A program made the translations under genes and the position numbers. Under the pieces are notes generated by a model, which saw only the letters and a program-made list of their open reading frames with translations, did no database searches and was not told the origin of the DNA. A stretch of 64,000 nt of DNA from Patescibacteria group bacterium (GTDB lineage: Bacteria; Patescibacteriota; Microgenomatia; Levybacterales; UBA12049), in NCBI GenBank assembly GCA_038062115.1, contig JBBTXS010000008.1:12484-76483 (forward strand). The letters run 5' to 3'. Of the stretch, positions 10,951 to 50,024 are shown one piece after another (the stretch's first letter is position 1; each line of letters begins with the position of its first letter).

Positions 10951-11210
10951 CCAATTTTGTAACCGTTCAGGAGTTGACAAAACCTTCCTTGTCATTCCCA
11001 TGAAAATGGGAATCTATATAAATAACGTTCTGGATTCCCGCCTTCGCGGGAATGACATTGGAAACTCGTGGACGGTTACCCAATTTTGTAACCGTTCAGG
11101 ATTTGACAAAGGAATTGTCATTGCGAGCGTAGCGAAGCAATCTCATGAGATCGCCACGGCTACTTCGTAGCCTCGCGATGACAACGTTTTGTCAACTCCT
11201 GAACGGTTAC
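10951..11210. repeat. Composite of nested palindromic elements between divergent genes
   Basis: A ~30-nt unit CCAATTTTGTAACCGTTCAGGAKTTGACAAA occurs at 10951 and 11079 (direct) and as TTTGTCAACTCCTGAACGGTTAC at 11187 (inverted). The units bracket two hairpin elements: GTCATTCCCATGAAAATGGGAATC...GGATTCCCGCCTTCGCGGGAATGACA (10991..11057) and GTCATTGCGAGCG...CCTCGCGATGAC (11117..11182). Confidence 0.8.
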
Positions 11211-11221
11211 GAGACAGGGTA

Positions 11222-20389: not shown

Positions 20390-20402
20390 TCCGTCGCTCG
20401 GT

Positions 20403-20493
20403 GTCATTGCGAGGAGCGAGTGTAAACGAGCGACGTGGCAATCCCACTGTGAAAAAAGAGATTGCTTCTCAGGCTTCGCCTGATCGCAATGAC
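20403..20493. mobile_element. MITE-like palindromic element (GTCATTGCGAGG...GCAATGAC family) between the two transketolase subunit genes
   Basis: 91 bp with inverted ends GTCATTGCGAGG / GATCGCAATGAC. The inner GTGGCAATCCCA...GAGATTGCTTC matches, in opposite orientation, the copy inside tsaD (49488..49575) and the copy at 11117..11182. Confidence 0.75.
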
Positions 20494-20504
20494 ATATCAA
20501 ATTT

Positions 20505-26374: not shown

Positions 26375-26483
26375 ATGACTGGGTCATTGTCATTTCGAGC
26401 TTGCCGAGAAATCTCCTTCAAAGAGATTCCTCGACTCGCTACACTCGCTCGGAATGACAAATGAGTATTTATGTCCTAGTCAT
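26375..26483. mobile_element. MITE-like element, family 1, full-length copy A
   Basis: 109 bp. Terminal inverted repeats ATGACTGGGTCAT / ATGTCCTAGTCAT (11 of 13 complementary). Inner inverted repeat TTGTCATTTCGAGC / GCTCGGAATGACAA. Flanked on both sides by AATTTCATT (26366..26374 and 26484..26492). Confidence 0.8.
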
Positions 26484-26623: not shown

Positions 26624-26707
26624 ATGACTGGGTCATAATTGTCATTTCGAGCTTGCCGCTCGCTACACTCGCTCGGAATGACAAATGAGTATTTATGTCC
26701 TAGTCAT
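26624..26707. mobile_element. MITE-like element, family 1, copy B (internal deletion variant)
   Basis: 84 bp. Same ends as copy A but lacks the internal GAGAAATCTCC...GAGATTCCTC hairpin. It abuts the ftsK start region. Confidence 0.75.
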
Positions 26708-31746: not shown

Positions 31747-33693
31747 ATGCCAACAGTCAAGCAGAATAAGGTACTTGGAGTTTTAGATAAAATATTTAAA
31801 GATCCAAGCGTTGTTTATGGCCTAAAAGAATTTGAGGGCATAAACTTTGAAGAGGTATTGTACGTATGGGAAGAAGACAAACGTTTCTATATAAAGGATA
31901 TAAAATCGGGTAATCCAAGAGTTGTCTTTGATGAGCAAAAACAAAGCAGCAAACCCGAAGAGATTATCCGTCAACTATGGCTTTATAAGCTGCACAGCAA
32001 TCTAAAATATCCACTCGATCGGCTTGAAACAGAAAAGAGTATCCACTTTGGAAGGGAAATTCACGCAAAAGCAGCAGACATAATCGTTTATAAAGAAGAT
32101 AAAGTTACCCCTTATATCATTGTCGAAGTAAAAAGCCCAAGTGAGGAAAAAGGAATAGATCAGCTAAAAAGCTATCTTAATGCGGAAGGATGTGAAATTG
32201 GCATTTGGTCAAATGGTATTGATCGGGTTATTCTATACCGTAACTATCCGAATCAATTTGAAGATACACTTTCAGAAATCCCACCAGCAGATAAAACAAT
32301 AGACGATATTTTAAGCGAGAAAAAAACACTTGGAGATACAGATTCGAAATATGATCTTAAGAGTGCCATAAAAATTATGGAAGAGTTAGTTTTAGCCAAC
32401 GCCGGCGTTGATGTTTTTACTGAAGTGTTTAAGCTAATTTATGCGAAGTTATATGATGAGATAGAAGCAGAAAAAAGACTGGATAACGAGATATTGTTTC
32501 GTAAATATAAAGATCCTCAAAAAACGTACTCTGCTATAAACAGTTTATTTAGAAGTGCTATTAGTAAGTGGCCAGATATTTTTTATGAGCAGGAAGTTAT
32601 TCGTCTATCGCCAGAGCACTTGTCGGTAGTTATAGGAGAGATGGAAAAAGCAAAACTTTTTGGCGCGGACATTTCGATTATTGATGAAGCGTTTGAATAC
32701 CTTATCCCGGAAGTTGCTAAGGGCAAAAAAGGACAATATTTTACTCCGCGTCATGTTATTGCCATGGCGGTAAAAATGCTCAACCCCAAACCAGACGAAT
32801 ATGTTATTGATCCCGCGGCAGGTTCTGGAGGATTTCTTATTTCTGCCATGCGTTGGGTTGATGAACAGTATACTAAAAATAACCAATCTAAACAAGAATA
32901 TGCTCAGCAGTATTTATATGGAGTAGACTTTGCCGACGAGACAGCAAAAGTGTCGCGAGCACTCATGCTTATTGCTGGAGACGGACGTTCCCATCTTTTT
33001 AAGCTTAACTCCCTTGATCCAAGAGAGTGGCAGGGAGAAAAGGACGAAAAATTGCACGCGAGACGAGAACTTCGTCAAAGACTGCTTAGGTATGAAGAGT
33101 ATGACGAAAAAGAGCAAAACGAAAAAACGTTCAAAAATTTTTCTTTTGACGTTTTACTTACTAACCCGCCATTTGCTGGAGAATTAAGAGATCCTGGGCT
33201 TTTAAGGCAATATGAGTTTGGCAAAAAGAACGGGAAGTTAGTGAATAAAGTTGAGCGTCATATTTTATTTATTGAGCGGGCGCTAGAGTTTGTAAAACCA
33301 GAAGGCAGAGTTGCAATAGTGTTGCCGCAAGGGGTTTTCAATAATACCAATATGGAATACATCCGTGAATGGTTGTTTGACAAAGCGCGAATACTTGCAG
33401 TCGTAGGCCTTCATGGTAATACGTTCAAGCCGCATACAGGAACCAAAACCTCGGTTTTATTCTTACAAAAATGGAGCGAGGATGAACAACCGCTAAAAGA
33501 CTATCCCATTTTTATGGCTGTTTCTAAAAAAGCAGGTAAAGATAACTCTGGAGAGTATGTTTATAAAAAAGACGAAAGCGGAAATTTTGTCTACAACGCC
33601 AATGGTCGCAAAGTCCTCGATCACGACCTCGACCAAATCGCAGAAAACTTTATTAAGTTTGCAAAAGATCAAGGATTTAGTTTTTGGAGGTGA
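31747..33693 (+). CDS. N6-adenine DNA methyltransferase with N-terminal PD-(D/E)XK (HSDR_N-type) nuclease domain
   Basis: 648 aa. Nuclease core AADIIVY...YIIVEVKSP (D...ExK). AdoMet motif VIDPAAGSGGFLISA. Catalytic motif LTNPPFAG (NPPF). Starts 4 nt after the lexA stop. Confidence 0.8.
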   Translation: MPTVKQNKVLGVLDKIFKDPSVVYGLKEFEGINFEEVLYVWEEDKRFYIKDIKSGNPRVVFDEQKQSSKPEEIIRQLWLYKLHSNLKYPLDRLETEKSIHFGREIHAKAADIIVYKEDKVTPYIIVEVKSPSEEKGIDQLKSYLNAEGCEIGIWSNGIDRVILYRNYPNQFEDTLSEIPPADKTIDDILSEKKTLGDTDSKYDLKSAIKIMEELVLANAGVDVFTEVFKLIYAKLYDEIEAEKRLDNEILFRKYKDPQKTYSAINSLFRSAISKWPDIFYEQEVIRLSPEHLSVVIGEMEKAKLFGADISIIDEAFEYLIPEVAKGKKGQYFTPRHVIAMAVKMLNPKPDEYVIDPAAGSGGFLISAMRWVDEQYTKNNQSKQEYAQQYLYGVDFADETAKVSRALMLIAGDGRSHLFKLNSLDPREWQGEKDEKLHARRELRQRLLRYEEYDEKEQNEKTFKNFSFDVLLTNPPFAGELRDPGLLRQYEFGKKNGKLVNKVERHILFIERALEFVKPEGRVAIVLPQGVFNNTNMEYIREWLFDKARILAVVGLHGNTFKPHTGTKTSVLFLQKWSEDEQPLKDYPIFMAVSKKAGKDNSGEYVYKKDESGNFVYNANGRKVLDHDLDQIAENFIKFAKDQGFSFWR

Positions 33694-33707
33694 CACAATC
33701 TTATTGT

Positions 33708-33756
33708 GTCATTCCCGCGAAACTTGTCCTCGAGAAATCGAGGAGCGGGAATCCAG
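33708..33756. repeat. Palindromic element (GTCATTCCCGCG...CGGGAATCCAG variant)
   Basis: Has the ends of the GTCATTCCCGCGAAAGCGGGAATCC hairpin family, with an inserted inner hairpin CCTCGAGAAATCGAGG. Lies between the methylase stop and the GIY-YIG gene. Confidence 0.7.
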
Positions 33757-33765
33757 AAAAATCAT

Positions 33766-34119
33766 ATGAAAAACTATTGTGTCTATATATTAGCAAGCAA
33801 AAGAAATGGAACGCTCTATATCGGTGTTACCAACAATTTAGAGAGAAGAATATATGAACATAAAAATAATATCATTAAAGGCTTTACTGCAAAATATAAC
33901 GTTCATCAGCTTGTTTATTTCGAGCAAACAGTAGATATTAATTCAGCTTTGCAAAGAGAAAAGCAGCTTAAGAAATGGAATCGGAAATGGAAACTTGCTT
34001 TAATCGAAAAAGAAAACCCCAATTGGGAGGATTTATCGGAGAGCTGGATGCCCGATCAGAGCTTGCCCCGTACGCGATACGGGGTCGGGCATGACAAAAA
34101 GGAAGCGGGGATTTATTAG
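33766..34119 (+). CDS. GIY-YIG nuclease family protein (small stand-alone type)
   Basis: YCVYILASKRNGTLYIGVTNNLERRIYEHK carries the GIY and YIG beta-strands, Arg and Glu. Start set at ATG 33766 (MKNYCVYIL) because the upstream part of the ORF-track model translates the palindromic repeat. The last ~20 codons also run into a palindromic element. Confidence 0.8.
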   Translation: MKNYCVYILASKRNGTLYIGVTNNLERRIYEHKNNIIKGFTAKYNVHQLVYFEQTVDINSALQREKQLKKWNRKWKLALIEKENPNWEDLSESWMPDQSLPRTRYGVGHDKKEAGIY

Positions 34120-34130
34120 TAGCTCTTGGT

Positions 34131-34321
34131 GTCATTCCCGCGAAAGCGGGAATCCAGAGAAAGATTACGACTGGATTCCCAATCAAGTTGGGAATGACAA
34201 AGTGATAGAAGGATAAATTAAACGATTTAGTTTTTGGAGGTAGCGAGGCTGTCATTCCCGCGAAAGCGGGAATCCAGAGAAAGAAGACAACTGGATTCCC
34301 AATCAAGTTGGGAATGACAAA
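34131..34321. repeat. Two tandem copies (120-bp period) of a double-hairpin palindromic element
   Basis: GTCATTCCCGCGAAAGCGGGAATCCAGAGAAAGA..AC..CTGGATTCCCAATCAAGTTGGGAATGACAAA occurs at 34131..34201 and 34251..34321. Each copy is followed by a copy of the 18-nt methylase 3' end. Confidence 0.85.
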
Positions 34322-34353
34322 GAGAGAGCGAGGGTTTAGTTTTTGGAGGTAAT

Positions 34354-34917
34354 ATGACAAAAGATGACCTTGAATTAGCAAAACAAGAATTTACTCGTGA
34401 TAGAGATCTTTGGACAGACTTATTACTTAAAAGACGTTTTTACTACCAAGATTTACTTACAAGAGTTACCGATCGACAAGTTAATCATATACTAACACTT
34501 ACTACTATTGCTGTCGCTTTAATTTCTATAGTTATTCCGATTACAAACTTGCCATTTTTTTCTATAATTCCATTTTGTTTGTTAAGTCTTAGTATCATTC
34601 TGGGAACTAGTTTAGTTTTATATACAATATTTCATGATAAAAATGGTATTCCCAAGACAAGAGATGCTGAGGTAGAAATTTATTCCAAATTCCAGTCAGC
34701 GGCCAACAGCAATTTTAACAAGGCTTACTCTGGAAATCTTACTTGGAATGATGTGAAGGATTATTTTGATTTAAGAAAAACGATCGAGGAAGATTTATCT
34801 AAGTTGAAGCCCAATAAAATTCTAGAGAAATTAAAAGATACTGTATACATCTCTTTTCTTGTTACCTTCTTCTTAGGATTAATAATTTTTTTGGGCTTAT
34901 TCTTTTATAAATATTAA
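34354..34917 (+). CDS. Three-TM membrane protein of unknown function, translationally coupled to the S subunit
   Basis: 187 aa. Helices ILTLTTIAVALISIVIPI, FSIIPFCLLSLSIILGTSLVLYTIF, VYISFLVTFFLGLIIFLGLFFY. A ~75-aa soluble loop. Stop and next start overlap as TAATG at 34915..34919. Confidence 0.6.
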   Translation: MTKDDLELAKQEFTRDRDLWTDLLLKRRFYYQDLLTRVTDRQVNHILTLTTIAVALISIVIPITNLPFFSIIPFCLLSLSIILGTSLVLYTIFHDKNGIPKTRDAEVEIYSKFQSAANSNFNKAYSGNLTWNDVKDYFDLRKTIEEDLSKLKPNKILEKLKDTVYISFLVTFFLGLIIFLGLFFYKY

Positions 34918-36293
34918 TGATTACCTTTTCAATAATCCAAAAATCTCAACTTGAAGGCGCTTATCGGCTAGATGCGGAATATTATCAGCCAGAATATTTA
35001 AAGGTAATAGAAAATATTAAAAGCAGAGAATTTCGTACCCTAGAAGATTTTGGTTGTAACGTTGTCAGTGGGCCTTTTGGCTCATCCCTTAAAAGTGAAG
35101 CTTATTTGGAACAAGGGATTCCATTTATTAGGATTAACGACTTAAAAGAATTTTTTATTCAGGAGGATAGTTTAGTTTACATTTCCGAAGAGGATAATAA
35201 TAGATTAAAACAATCTCAGCTTCATCCTTTTGATTTAGTTCTATCTAAAGTGGGAAATACCATTGGTATAGTATCAGCAATAACAGAAGAATTAGGTATT
35301 AGCAATATAAGCGAAAATAACATTGGTATAAAATTTAAAAATTCAAACCTAACTTTGGCTCATAAGTTATTTTTATTAACCTTTTTAAATTCCAGTTTGG
35401 GATACTTGCAGGTAAAAAGGAGTGTTAGCGGTAACGCACAACCTAAATTAAACATAAGCGATATTTCTCAACTGATAGTTCCTTCACCACAAATAAATCT
35501 TCTTAAAAAAATTGAAGAATTAATACTTGAAGCAAAACAAAGCTTGGATAGTTCAAAACTTTTATATGGGCAAGCCGAAAATTTGCTTTTGGAGGAGTTG
35601 GGGTTAAAGGATTTTCAGGCAAAAGATGATTTGAGTTTTGTTGTAAATCTTTCAGATGTAAAATCTGCAAATCGCGTAGACGCTGAATATTTTCAACCGA
35701 AGTATCAAAAGCTAGTCGAGCAGATTAAAAAGCAAAACCATAAACAACTAGGAGAATTAGTTTCAATGAAGAAAGGATTTGAATCTGGAAGCGAAGCATA
35801 TCAAGAAGATGGAAGATTATTTATTAGGGTAAGCAGTCTCTCTAAGTCTGGTATTGATAATAAAGATCAAAAATATTTAAGCGAAGAATTATATGAAAGA
35901 CTGCAAAAAGATTTTCAACCAGGACTTGGAGAAATTTTACTAACAAAAGACGCAACACCGGGAACTGCCTACGTTTTGAAAGAACCAATTGATGGAATTA
36001 TTTCTGGTGGCATTTTGCGTCTAAAAGTAAAAGGCGATACAGATCCTGAATATTTGGCGCTTTGTGTAAGCTCTATAATAGGGCAGATGCAAGCAGAACG
36101 AGATGCAGGAGGTTCGGTTATTGCTCATTGGAAGCCCGAACAGATTAGAAATTTATTGATGCCAATTTTACCAAAAGAAGTACAGCAGAAAATTGCTGAT
36201 TTGGTGAGGAAATCACATGAGGCAAGGAAAAAATCAAAAGAGCTTTTAGAGGAGGCAAAACGTAAAGTTGAGGAAATGATAGAAAATGGGTGA
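34917..36293 (+). CDS. hsdS: Restriction-modification specificity (S) subunit with two target-recognition domains
   Basis: 458 aa. Internal duplication (RLDAEYYQPEYLKVIENIKS / RVDAEYFQPKYQKLVEQIKK). Central and C-terminal coiled conserved regions (LLKKIEELILEAKQSLDSS... / QQKIADLVRKSHEARKKSKELLEEAKRKVEEMI). Confidence 0.8.
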   Translation: MITFSIIQKSQLEGAYRLDAEYYQPEYLKVIENIKSREFRTLEDFGCNVVSGPFGSSLKSEAYLEQGIPFIRINDLKEFFIQEDSLVYISEEDNNRLKQSQLHPFDLVLSKVGNTIGIVSAITEELGISNISENNIGIKFKNSNLTLAHKLFLLTFLNSSLGYLQVKRSVSGNAQPKLNISDISQLIVPSPQINLLKKIEELILEAKQSLDSSKLLYGQAENLLLEELGLKDFQAKDDLSFVVNLSDVKSANRVDAEYFQPKYQKLVEQIKKQNHKQLGELVSMKKGFESGSEAYQEDGRLFIRVSSLSKSGIDNKDQKYLSEELYERLQKDFQPGLGEILLTKDATPGTAYVLKEPIDGIISGGILRLKVKGDTDPEYLALCVSSIIGQMQAERDAGGSVIAHWKPEQIRNLLMPILPKEVQQKIADLVRKSHEARKKSKELLEEAKRKVEEMIENG

Positions 36294-46647: not shown

Positions 46648-46759
46648 ATGACTGGGTCACAATTGTCATTTCGAGCTTGCCGAGAAATCTCCTTCAACGA
46701 GATTCCTCGACTCGCTACGCTCGCTCGGAATGACAAATGGGTATTTATGACCCAGCCAT
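46648..46759. mobile_element. MITE-like element, family 1, copy C, with perfect flanking direct repeat
   Basis: 112 bp, same ends and inner hairpins as copy A. Flanked by AATCATAGCACT at 46636..46647 and 46760..46771. Identity extends to 17 nt (46634..46650 and 46758..46774) where the flanks overlap the element ends. Confidence 0.85.
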
Positions 46760-48734: not shown

Positions 48735-50024
48735 TTAATCAAAGTACAACTCTGGATCTGCCGTAATTTTGCTCCAATGGAATGGTTTGTGATTAAAAAA
48801 AGCTGCGGAGGCGATCATCGCCCCATTGTCCGTACAGAGATTTTTCGACGGTACGGACAATGAGATTTCTAATTTCAAATTTCTAATTTCTAATGCAAAT
48901 TGATCACGAAGTTTTTGATTGGCTGAGACGCCACCTCCTAGGAGAATTGATTTGACGTTGTATTTTTGGGCTGCTTTTAGGGTTTTAGCAATTAATACGT
49001 CAACAATTGCTTGTTGGACAGAGGCGCTGAGATCTGACAACAATTGTTCTTTTTCATTGGTCATTCTGGCAATCCCGACTTGTCGGGAACGTCCAGAATC
49101 TCCTACGTCAGTACGTTGAGAGATTCTGGAGTCGTCCTCCACGCTTCCGCTCTGAGTCGTCCCCAGAATGACGGAGACTTTAGGATCTTTTTTGATCAAA
49201 TATAAAACAGATGTTTTTAAACCGCTGAAACTAAAGTCCAAATCGTCGGAGTCAATCATCGGTCGTGGAAATTGGAATGCTTTTGGGCTGCCGTTTTTAG
49301 CGGCTTTTTCAATTGATGGGCCACCTGGATAAGGTAATCCTAAAAGTCTTCCTATTTTGTCAAATGCTTCGCCAGCAGCATCATCACGCGTGCCACCAAG
49401 CCACTTAATTTTTCCATGATCTTTCATCAGGACCAAGTCAGTATGGCCTCCCGAAACAATTAGAGCAAGAATAGGGAAGGTTATTTTGTCATTGCGAGGA
49501 TCCCGACTTGTCGGGAGACGAAGCAATCTCTTATCCGATGGGATTGCCACGCTCCTTTCAGTCGCTCGCAATGACACAGAAGCGAAAGGCTTTTCTTCAA
49601 TGAAATTTGCATAGATGTGTCCGATAAGGTGATTGACTGGGATTATTGGCTTCTGCCAAATATAAGATAGAGTTCTTGCAGTTTCAACTCCTACCAAAAG
49701 AGAACCGATAAGACCGGGACCTACGGTGACAGCGATAACATCTATTGTTTCATTGCTCAATTGTTTCATTGTTCCATTGTTAGTTCTCGACTCGCTACGC
49801 TCGCTCGAAGAATAAACAGCAAGGGCTTTTTTAATTACTGGAATTATATATTTTACCTGTTCGCGGGCGGCAACTTCTGGAATAATTCCGCCTGTCTTTG
49901 AGTGAAGACGTAAAGAAGATGCAACCACATTAGAAATAAGTTTGACTTTTCTATCACCTTGATTTGCCTCAATAATAGAGGCAGAAGTTTCGTCGCAGCT
50001 AGTTTCTATCCCTAAAATTCTCAT
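48735..50024 (-). CDS. tsaD: tRNA N6-adenosine threonylcarbamoyltransferase TsaD, with repeat-derived in-frame insertions
   Basis: MRILGIETSCDETSASI, VTVGPGLIGSLLVG, LALIVSGGHTDL, LCTDNGAMIA. 429 aa, against 337 aa for E. coli TsaD. The extra segments coincide with repeat copies at 49742..49810, 49488..49575, 49060..49172 and 48865..48899. Confidence 0.9.
   Translation of the reverse strand: MRILGIETSCDETSASIIEANQGDRKVKLISNVVASSLRLHSKTGGIIPEVAAREQVKYIIPVIKKALAVYSSSERSESRTNNGTMKQLSNETIDVIAVTVGPGLIGSLLVGVETARTLSYIWQKPIIPVNHLIGHIYANFIEEKPFASVSLRATERSVAIPSDKRLLRLPTSRDPRNDKITFPILALIVSGGHTDLVLMKDHGKIKWLGGTRDDAAGEAFDKIGRLLGLPYPGGPSIEKAAKNGSPKAFQFPRPMIDSDDLDFSFSGLKTSVLYLIKKDPKVSVILGTTQSGSVEDDSRISQRTDVGDSGRSRQVGIARMTNEKEQLLSDLSASVQQAIVDVLIAKTLKAAQKYNVKSILLGGGVSANQKLRDQFALEIRNLKLEISLSVPSKNLCTDNGAMIASAAFFNHKPFHWSKITADPELYFD

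Follow-up and report, generated by a model that had tools for sequence, protein, structure and literature searches.

The window, which is the whole 64-kb stretch of DNA analysed here, comes from a Patescibacteria genome of a Hainich groundwater assembly, and identical contigs were found across several samples. It contains a type I restriction-modification (RM) operon, in which a small GIY-YIG nuclease gene (the ssn-like gene) and several DNA hairpins follow the methylase gene. The hsdM-like gene (31747..33693, + strand) encodes a type I N6-adenine methylase of 648 amino acids (aa), with matches to the Pfam families N6_Mtase (6.7e-40) and HSDR_N_2 (1.7e-21). An identical protein is on record as an N-6 DNA methylase of the Patescibacteria group. 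The inserted DNA is followed by orf187 (34354..34917, + strand) and then by an hsdS-like gene (34917..36293, + strand). The orf187 product is a putative membrane protein of 187 aa, as judged from hydrophobic stretches seen by eye and from its description in the first-pass annotation, an earlier note on this DNA. The hsdS-like product is a specificity subunit, which matches PF01420 Methylase_S (5.7e-12) in two stretches. The end of hsdM, termed X, occurs three times around the inserts, and the origin of these repeats and their relation to the ssn-like gene are the subject of this analysis.

The X sequence is the 18-mer GATTTAGTTTTTGGAGGT. It was found exactly at 33674-33691 (X1) and 34224-34241 (X2), and with one mismatch at 34333-34350 (X3). 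No further match with up to 3 mismatches was found in the 64 kb, in which 0.17 are expected; 3 copies were reached in 0/100 shuffles. The mismatch search therefore recovered the three copies reported by the first-pass annotation, and its arrangement was also recovered: the GIY-YIG open reading frame (ORF) and hairpins lie between X1 and X2, and a second double hairpin lies between X2 and X3. X1 (+ strand) is the 3' terminus of hsdM; it codes for ..GFSFWR and contains GGAGG. The same motif also ends hsdM in the related loci L086, L094, L095, L096, L099, L143, and others. X2 (+ strand) is a copy of the hsdM tail with no ORF behind it. It is followed by AGCG, so that its final T and AG form TAG. 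This join resembles the hsdM end of the relative L095, and positions 34215-34285 match the L095 junction of the hsdM end and hairpin at 52/60. X3 (+ strand) is a copy of the hsdM tail ahead of orf187, and supplies GGAGG, the former stop TAA, and the spacing for the start at 34354; it reads TGGAGGTAATATG into orf187. Leaders of the X3 type precede orf187 homologues in L086, L087, L088, and L093, even without hsdM upstream. The homology to the hsdM tail exceeds 18 nt, with about 21 nt for X2 and about 26 nt for X3 (34325-34350). A weak purine-rich similarity to X is also seen at 34098-34117, and may be a fourth partial copy.

The ssn-like gene (33766..34119, + strand) has its best start at ATG 33766 and encodes 117 aa. 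The PF01541 domain (E=2.4e-18) spans residues 3-76 and is the single domain of the protein; the conserved core ends near residue 90. The last ~25 codons come from the right hairpin (34044-34096) and beyond, as the first-pass annotation had noticed when it described the 3' end of this ORF as running into a hairpin. Ssn enzymes are single-domain GIY-YIG proteins (CDD cd10448; Chenal et al., Nat Commun 2025; PMC11893778). They bind the hairpin repeat NTS, CGTCATTCCCGCGMAVGCGGGAATCYRG, as single-stranded DNA (ssDNA) only and in a single orientation, and cut a few nt upstream; binding and cutting were shown in Neisseria and three other species (PMC11893778). The Ssn protein of N. meningitidis is about 94 aa long, and its residues Y6, Y17, and E64 were mutated (PMC11893778). 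The ssn genes are typically bracketed by NTS or NTS-like (SRM) repeats, and in N. meningitidis the Ssn enzyme reduces transformation by NTS-bearing DNA (PMC11893778). The authors likened NTS-ssnA-NTS to an insertion sequence, and mobility was only hypothesised (PMC11893778). No later report on Ssn/NTS mobility was found in the literature searched. A literature search on GIY-YIG proteins with miniature inverted-repeat transposable elements (MITE) or repetitive extragenic palindromes (REP) gave nothing relevant, and the family was reached via the Neisseria dRS3 repeat.

Several features link the window protein with this family. The window hairpin TGTCATTCCCGCGAAAGCGGGAATCCAG is equal to the Neisseria NTS consensus but for base 1. 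The strict SRM pattern, HGTCWYN(0-2)YYVSBRHN(0-5)WNVSBRGN(0-2)RNCYNB (PMC11893778), together with the NTS consensus has 3 matches in the window, where 0.04 would be expected. All window copies contain the two features reported to be critical (PMC11893778), a GTC ahead of the palindrome and a C behind it. Six residues (Y7, Y18, R28, E31, H32, and E65) are invariant among 17 homologues, and the spacing of Y7/Y18/E65 is that of Y6/Y17/E64 in Neisseria, offset by one residue. The window protein shares 72% identity with a Methylomonas homologue, whose locus (L068) has four exact strict matches to the NTS consensus. Because of the strict SRM/NTS matches, the GIY-YIG-only protein, the Tyr/Tyr/Glu spacing, and the outward-facing hairpins around its homologues, the ORF fits the Ssn family on indirect evidence, and the Ssn biochemistry might extend to the window protein by analogy. 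The dN/dS value of 0.05 against the closest relative, L006, indicates strong purifying selection on the gene. There is only one ssn gene in the window, and tblastn found no GIY-YIG paralogue there; no relative was found in the PDB by sequence.

The hairpins fall into a simple architecture. All of them fold well as ssDNA, with z values of -3.8 to -5.8 against shuffles. The region between X1 and the GIY-YIG ORF (33692-33756) contains two of them. The first is a small spacer hairpin, GACACAAT-CTT-ATTGTGTC (33692..33710, + strand; DNA fold -7.6 kcal/mol, z -5.0), which overlaps the hsdM stop TGA (33691-33693) and the first 4 nt of the left NTS; a longer version of it follows the second X copy in L097. 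The second is the left NTS hairpin of the full-length unit (33707..33756, + strand; z -4.95), with its head TGTCAT facing outward. Its loop is interrupted by a 22-nt nested hairpin (33723-33744). At the orthologous place L097 has the uninterrupted TGTCATTCCCGCGAAAGCGGGAATCCAG, and the nested insert is absent. The right NTS-like hairpin, CTGGATGCCCGATCAG..TCGGGCATGACA (34044..34096, listed on the + strand; z -3.8), has its head outward on the minus strand and carries a nested hairpin at 34066-34084. This variant is shared with L006 and L143, and it encodes the ..DW(M/I)PDQ.. tail known from homologues.

Two ORF-less NTS pairs (minis) follow. M1 (34130..34199, + strand; z -5.3) consists of a left NTS, a 13-nt spacer, and a right hairpin; its strict SRM/NTS match is at 34130-34157, and it aligns with minis of other genomes. 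M2 (34250..34319, + strand; z -5.8) has its strict match at 34250-34277. Both are 70 nt long, with 94% identity over 79 nt. The layout of the double hairpin is TGTCATTCCC-GCGAAAGC-GGGAATCCAG, the 13-nt spacer, and CTGGATTCCC-AATCAAGTT-GGGAATGACA. The terminal inverted repeats TGTCATTCCC / GGGAATGACA end both the full-length unit and the minis. Since the ORF has the left hairpin upstream and a right-hairpin variant as its 3' end, the GIY-YIG gene lies inside a double hairpin, and the 70-nt elements are its ORF-less form. The window contains three minis; the third (10990-11057) shares the spacer TTATTTATATAG with the L143 mini of another genome. Among the compared genomes, no single mini was seen as a recent insertion polymorphism. 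The loops of NTS hairpins often carry nested small hairpins or longer inserts, as in the window, L007, L010, L013, L014, L020, and L021. Cleavage by Ssn is not blocked by loop identity or by loop extensions (PMC11893778).

The same frame was found around many homologues. At least 7994 ssn homologues exist, with identities of 65-93%, and 80 ssn loci from more than 15 phyla were surveyed. Among the 76 copies that could be evaluated, outward-facing hairpins were found upstream of 61, downstream of 62, and on both sides of 51. Exact matches to the NTS consensus are present in 32/80 loci. Among the predicted homologues, many have CHSRESGNPE at the start and DWIPDQVGNDK, DWMPDQVGHDK, or DWIPAFAGMT at the end; these are translations of the two hairpins. 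ORF-less pairs of left and right hairpins occur in many of the 80 loci and align as conserved units between genomes. Many contigs end at the NTS repeat. The first-pass annotation had suggested that the GIY-YIG gene and its hairpins might form a small selfish unit. This proposal is largely correct, and a unit framed by hairpins is indeed seen in the 51 copies with hairpins on both sides; however, the unit has already been described as Ssn/NTS.

The close relative L006 (recA 83% identical at the nucleotide level) retains ~30 nt of the hsdM tail; behind it come a mini, ssn, and recX, and hsdM, orf187, and hsdS are absent. As the remnant of the hsdM tail is kept together with the mini and ssn, the NTS module has probably been at this site for long, with remodelling of the operon that surrounds it. 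The L006 contig (CAZPZA010000018.1) is recorded as an uncultured Gammaproteobacteria, and its recA, recX, and ssn share 72-88% nucleotide identity with the window; this bin label is probably wrong. In the survey, an hsdM-like or N6-methylase match was found within 2.5 kb of ssn in 4/80 loci (L012, L081, L068, and L052; tblastn E 1e-135 to 2e-9), and this proximity may be beyond chance, judged without a computed background rate.

The first-pass annotation had explained the three X copies by two successive insertions, each of which duplicated about 18 bp of target. Flank comparisons covered all full-length elements and minis of the window and of the 80 loci, 60 of them by exact matching and 58 by gapped local alignment. 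With exact matching, 36/60 had no shared 7-mer, and the distribution was like that of shuffles but for four outliers (15, 17, 30, and 46 nt), three of which are composed of element sequence. With gapped alignment, 4/58 were positive at p<=0.01, and the other 54 had no significant flanking repeat. Of the four positives, three consist of partial hairpin ends in arrays or of a composite block present in duplicate; the remaining one, M2, is the sole element of the 58 whose flanks share a clean long repeat (17 nt) made of non-element sequence. X copies and hairpin termini are not adjacent, being separated by 8-24 nt of unrelated spacer. The flank survey was negative and the X copies are set apart from the termini; therefore, regular target duplication is not a property of the element family. 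Two candidate explanations were rejected on these data. The 18-mer is not part of the element, because it is absent from the 80 ssn loci except the close relative L006. General target duplication by the family was rejected because both comparisons of 58-60 elements were negative. The two-insertion explanation was not sustained either, since X also flanks inserts that have no hairpins. X repeats without any insert, named beforehand as evidence against this explanation, were not found; instead, X was found to bound inserts that lack a hairpin element.

The position of X became clear from related type I RM operons. The junction alleles were gathered from relatives of orf187 and of hsdM. Two of them show the empty junction. 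L094 has a single X, ..AGATTTAGTTTTTGGAGACAAAAATGAAG, and its hsdM stop overlaps the next start; L091 has a single X and a 9-nt gap between the hsdM stop and the next start. The tight junction of hsdM and the next gene, which the first-pass annotation had predicted by removing the inserts, therefore exists in nature with one copy of the motif. A single X is directly followed by other cargo in L096 (a 151-aa ORF), L098 (a ClpP-like gene), and eight further loci. X is present 2-3 times in at least seven other loci. The order is hsdM-X-NYN-X-[NTS mini]-X-ORF-hsdS in L099 and hsdM-X-170 nt-X-[NTS mini + ssn]-X-ORF-hsdS in L143, with three X copies each. L097 has hsdM-X-NYN gene-X-spacer-NTS, and its second X, TGA, and spacer match the X1 region of the window. 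The NYN inserts of L097, L099, and L093 are without hairpins, as are the inserts of other alleles: L086 has hsdM-X-[NYN remnant]-X-orf187, and L139 has hsdM-X-ORF-X-ORF. L093 (X-NYN-X-orf189) and L088 (X before the orf187 homologue) have no hsdM upstream. The 165-nt insert of L086 had been considered as a decayed duplicate of the hsdM tail, which was rejected because L097 shows that it is mostly the 3' remnant of the NYN cassette. A distant operon, L012 (hsdM 45% identical), contains a HEPN/nucleotidyltransferase pair and ssn between hsdM and hsdS. Before hsdS it also has a diverged copy, ~48 nt long, of the 3' end of its own hsdM (1650-1727 vs 2835-2914), with a score reached by 0/1000 shuffles.

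The cargo ORFs start about 2-9 nt past the GGAGGT of X, and the stretch homologous to hsdM differs among copies, from ~21 to ~65 nt. Because X bounds unrelated inserts without hairpins and the cargo starts shortly after GGAGGT, X is read as the hsdM tail that holds the predicted Shine-Dalgarno sequence of the next gene, found before each stacked module of any kind. In EcoKI, hsdM and hsdS overlap by 1 nt and are known to be translationally coupled (PMC3510504). The literature searched contained no description of an hsdM tail repeated before each stacked module. Judged from gene content, the hsdM-hsdS slot behaves as a cargo hotspot within the RM operon. The genes seen in it are a 187-aa putative membrane ORF (window 34354-34917), a 151-aa ORF (L096 3233-3688), a ClpP-like protease (L098 5968-6510), an NYN-domain nuclease (L097 2472-2999; L099 352-876), a ~200-aa ORF (L099 1157-1801), a HEPN and nucleotidyltransferase pair (L012 1725-2407), and ssn; L139 also carries slot genes.

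These observations suggest that the window probably contains an Ssn-family gene and NTS modules, placed in a type I RM operon at a slot of variable cargo, with the X copies as junction leaders kept at the module borders. In the ancestral operon, the hsdM stop would overlap or abut the next start, and the GGAGG of the next gene would lie inside the last hsdM codons. When DNA was added at this junction, the HsdM C-terminus and the downstream ribosome-binding site could both survive only with X on both sides. Only events that kept X on both sides would then be seen, and the outcome would be arrays of the form hsdM-X-[module]-X-[module]-X-gene. Recombination between X copies might add, stack, or remove modules. 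The ssn unit (33707-34096) and the two ORF-less NTS pairs would be one or two modules in the slot after hsdM. The window might be a stack of two module types, one like L097/L099/L143 (X, TGA, spacer, NTS/ssn), the other like L095 (X, AGCG, TAG across the join, NTS). The first block (X1, TGA, spacer, left NTS, ssn, right hairpin, and M1) would correspond to the module after the second X in L097, L099, and L143. The hsdM end of the window would be the downstream X of these loci, with the NYN module lost or never gained through X-by-X exchange, and X3 would act as the functional leader of orf187. The sequence identities, the architecture, the X copies around unrelated inserts, the empty junctions, and the lack of flanking repeats at other copies are direct observations. 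Selection may be the reason for the persistence of X, and X-by-X recombination may be the mechanism of stacking and loss.

Several points weigh against this reading. The junction-leader model covers the persistence of X, but not the process that first created the duplication. The X copies, 18-30 nt long, are short for efficient RecA recombination. The model also leaves unexplained that AGCGAGG brackets M2 (34242-34248 and 34326-34332), 1 nt before its left end and 6 nt past its right end (34319). These copies could be a short target duplication, part of an extended copy of the hsdM tail, or chance. Because the NTS module itself is flanked by X in the window, L099, and L143, a staggered break at X made by the nuclease may have taken part in the original event that placed the NTS module.

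Such breaks would be the whole explanation if the hairpin/GIY-YIG unit made cuts ~18 bp apart at the hsdM-tail site, with two insertions giving three copies. This would account for three copies with inserts between them, for the clean 17-nt repeat shared by the M2 flanks, for the NTS modules between X copies in the window, L099, and L143, and for the side spacers of M1 and M2, which differ, unlike in a simple tandem duplication. It is nevertheless unlikely. The 54/58 elements without a significant flanking repeat speak against it, as do the other three positives, which are element sequence, and the unrelated 8-24 nt that part X from the hairpin termini. X is also duplicated around NYN and other hairpin-free cargo, and the duplicated length varies from ~21 to ~65 nt by event. 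Moreover, the characterised Ssn enzymes cut ssDNA beside NTS only, and not a free target (PMC11893778).

The occurrence of X at every module boundary in at least eight loci, with shared modules in differing order among relatives, could also be due to a dedicated att-like or integron-like site, at which circular cassettes with one X each are moved by a recombinase encoded elsewhere. The hsdM of the window ends with the TGA+spacer X that follows the NYN module in L097/L099, as after precise excision of NYN. However, no integrase or recombinase gene is near the operon in the window or its relatives, where the neighbours are recA, lexA, recX, and RNase Y; X is non-palindromic and has no attC-like structure; and the extent of the hsdM homology differs per copy, which is more in keeping with homologous or illegitimate events than with a fixed crossover point. 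A dedicated site is considered quite unlikely. Tandem amplification is judged very unlikely. Here, a single insertion would be followed by unequal crossing-over between X copies, which amplified a unit of NTS pair and X, and then by divergence. M1 and M2 are 94% identical and only 120 nt apart, and the ~20 nt past the right ends of the full-length unit and M2 are alike (25/32 including the hairpin arm). By contrast, the spacers from hairpin pair to X (24 vs 14 nt) and from X to pair are unalignable although X is perfect, the X2+AGCG context matches another allele type (L095), and the weak purine-rich similarity is of a kind usual in ribosome-binding regions.

The window system was compared with known systems. 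It is like Ssn/NTS (PMC11893778) in its single-domain GIY-YIG protein of ~95-120 aa, its consensus hairpin minus the first base, its NTS-ssn-NTS order, and its extra hairpins nearby. However, its host belongs to the Patescibacteria (candidate phyla radiation, CPR), whereas the known systems are from Pseudomonadati; its hairpins have nested loop hairpins, its ORF reads through the right hairpin, and the unit lies within a type I RM operon. The dRS3 repeats and neisserial intergenic mosaic elements (NIMEs) of Neisseria have the identical core ATTCCC-N8-GGGAAT, and their intergenic clusters also bracket short variable segments; there are hundreds of copies per Neisseria genome, but only a handful in the 64-kb window. 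Phage integration has been reported at dRS3. The REP or bacterial interspersed mosaic elements (BIME) with RAYT, an IS200/IS605-like Y1 HUH protein, similarly have a small nuclease gene between inverted hairpins, dispersed ORF-less pairs, no target duplication, and ssDNA hairpin recognition, which is proposed for the window protein by analogy with Ssn. They differ in the HUH fold, while GIY-YIG is the sole domain of the window protein, and the window ends hold the recognised strand on opposite strands. The GIY-YIG homing endonucleases (I-TevI, Seg/Mob) also lie between conserved genes and have insert-free alleles in relatives. However, they are dsDNA cutters with a separate C-terminal DNA-binding domain, whereas the window protein is a catalytic domain alone; the group I intron endonuclease model TIGR01453 gave 23.6 bits on it, against a cut-off of 56. 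Accessory genes embedded in type I loci are known, such as prrC in EcoprrI. At EcoKI-type hsdM-hsdS junctions, the 3' end of hsdM likewise overlaps or abuts the next start (PMC3510504).

The conserved ORF-less units, the nested loop hairpins, the 20-22-nt arrays of partial ends, and the 65-93% identical proteins across more than 15 phyla lead to a tentative proposal on mobility, which is regarded as possible rather than probable. The NTS pairs might be non-autonomous and NTS-ssn-NTS autonomous mobile elements, moved by Ssn via a single-strand intermediate and without target duplication. If true, this would define a class of prokaryotic DNA transposons that relies on a GIY-YIG domain alone. The Ssn/NTS unit itself is already known, and is now placed in an ultra-small groundwater bacterium; the hsdM-tail copies that bound stacked cargo were not found described in the literature searched. 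The frame of a gene with two hairpins and its ORF-less derivatives are common to bacteria from CPR through Proteobacteria, which bears on the spread of NTS/dRS3-type repeats. Nuclease genes, a toxin-antitoxin-like pair, and putative membrane proteins have collected in the slot after hsdM. A copy of the methylase tail before each module would be a simple route for a translationally coupled operon to take up genes without loss of expression, and the slot alleles supply natural occupied and empty pairs for experiments.

Some further results concern the operon and the repeats. The orf187 has no match in Pfam, NCBIfam, or PADLOC; a first metagenome scan with orf187 peptides found no relatives, and 14 homologues were identified. 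The PADLOC and NCBIfam searches of ssn, orf187, and other cargo gave nothing but a weak NYN match. The promoter and terminator scan gave no signal beyond shuffles, and Rfam, with all families at gathering thresholds, found one tRNA and no match to the hairpins. In L087 (60-100), 13 nt are duplicated in tandem (TTTTATGAATAAA twice) across the start codon of the orf187 homologue. Tandem arrays with a ~20-22-nt period, made of a partial hairpin end (e.g. GGTCGGGAATGACA) and ~8-10 nt, stand beside many elements, as in L008 (~1900-2035 and 2385-2425), L016 (~2420-2460), L018 (2820-2900), L038, L039, L041, and L044; they resemble stuttering, repeated at the element terminus. In L051 (2297-2994), a Deltaproteobacteria metagenome-assembled genome, ssn lies between direct repeats of a ~197-nt composite block, which consists of an NTS pair, a second element type, and another NTS.

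Other palindromes were seen elsewhere in the window. In the region 10953-11215, the inverted NTS pair (10990-11057) and a TGTCAT-headed palindrome (11116-~11180) each lie between inverted copies of GTAACCGTTCAGGAGTTGACAAA. The 31-nt stretch CCAATTTTGTAACCGTTCAGGAGTTGACAAA precedes both elements, and a promoter-like sequence containing TTGACA is close by. There are at least three further palindrome families, which have TGTCAT..ATGACA termini and different stems (TGTCATTGCGAG.. and TGTCATTTCGAGC.. types), at 11116-11180, 20402-20494, and 49487-49576; at 26388-26459, 26640-26683, and 46664-46735; and at 49059-49173. The TGTCATTTCGAGC.. type is always found inside an outer inverted repeat, TATGACTGGGTCA../..GACCCAGYCATA.

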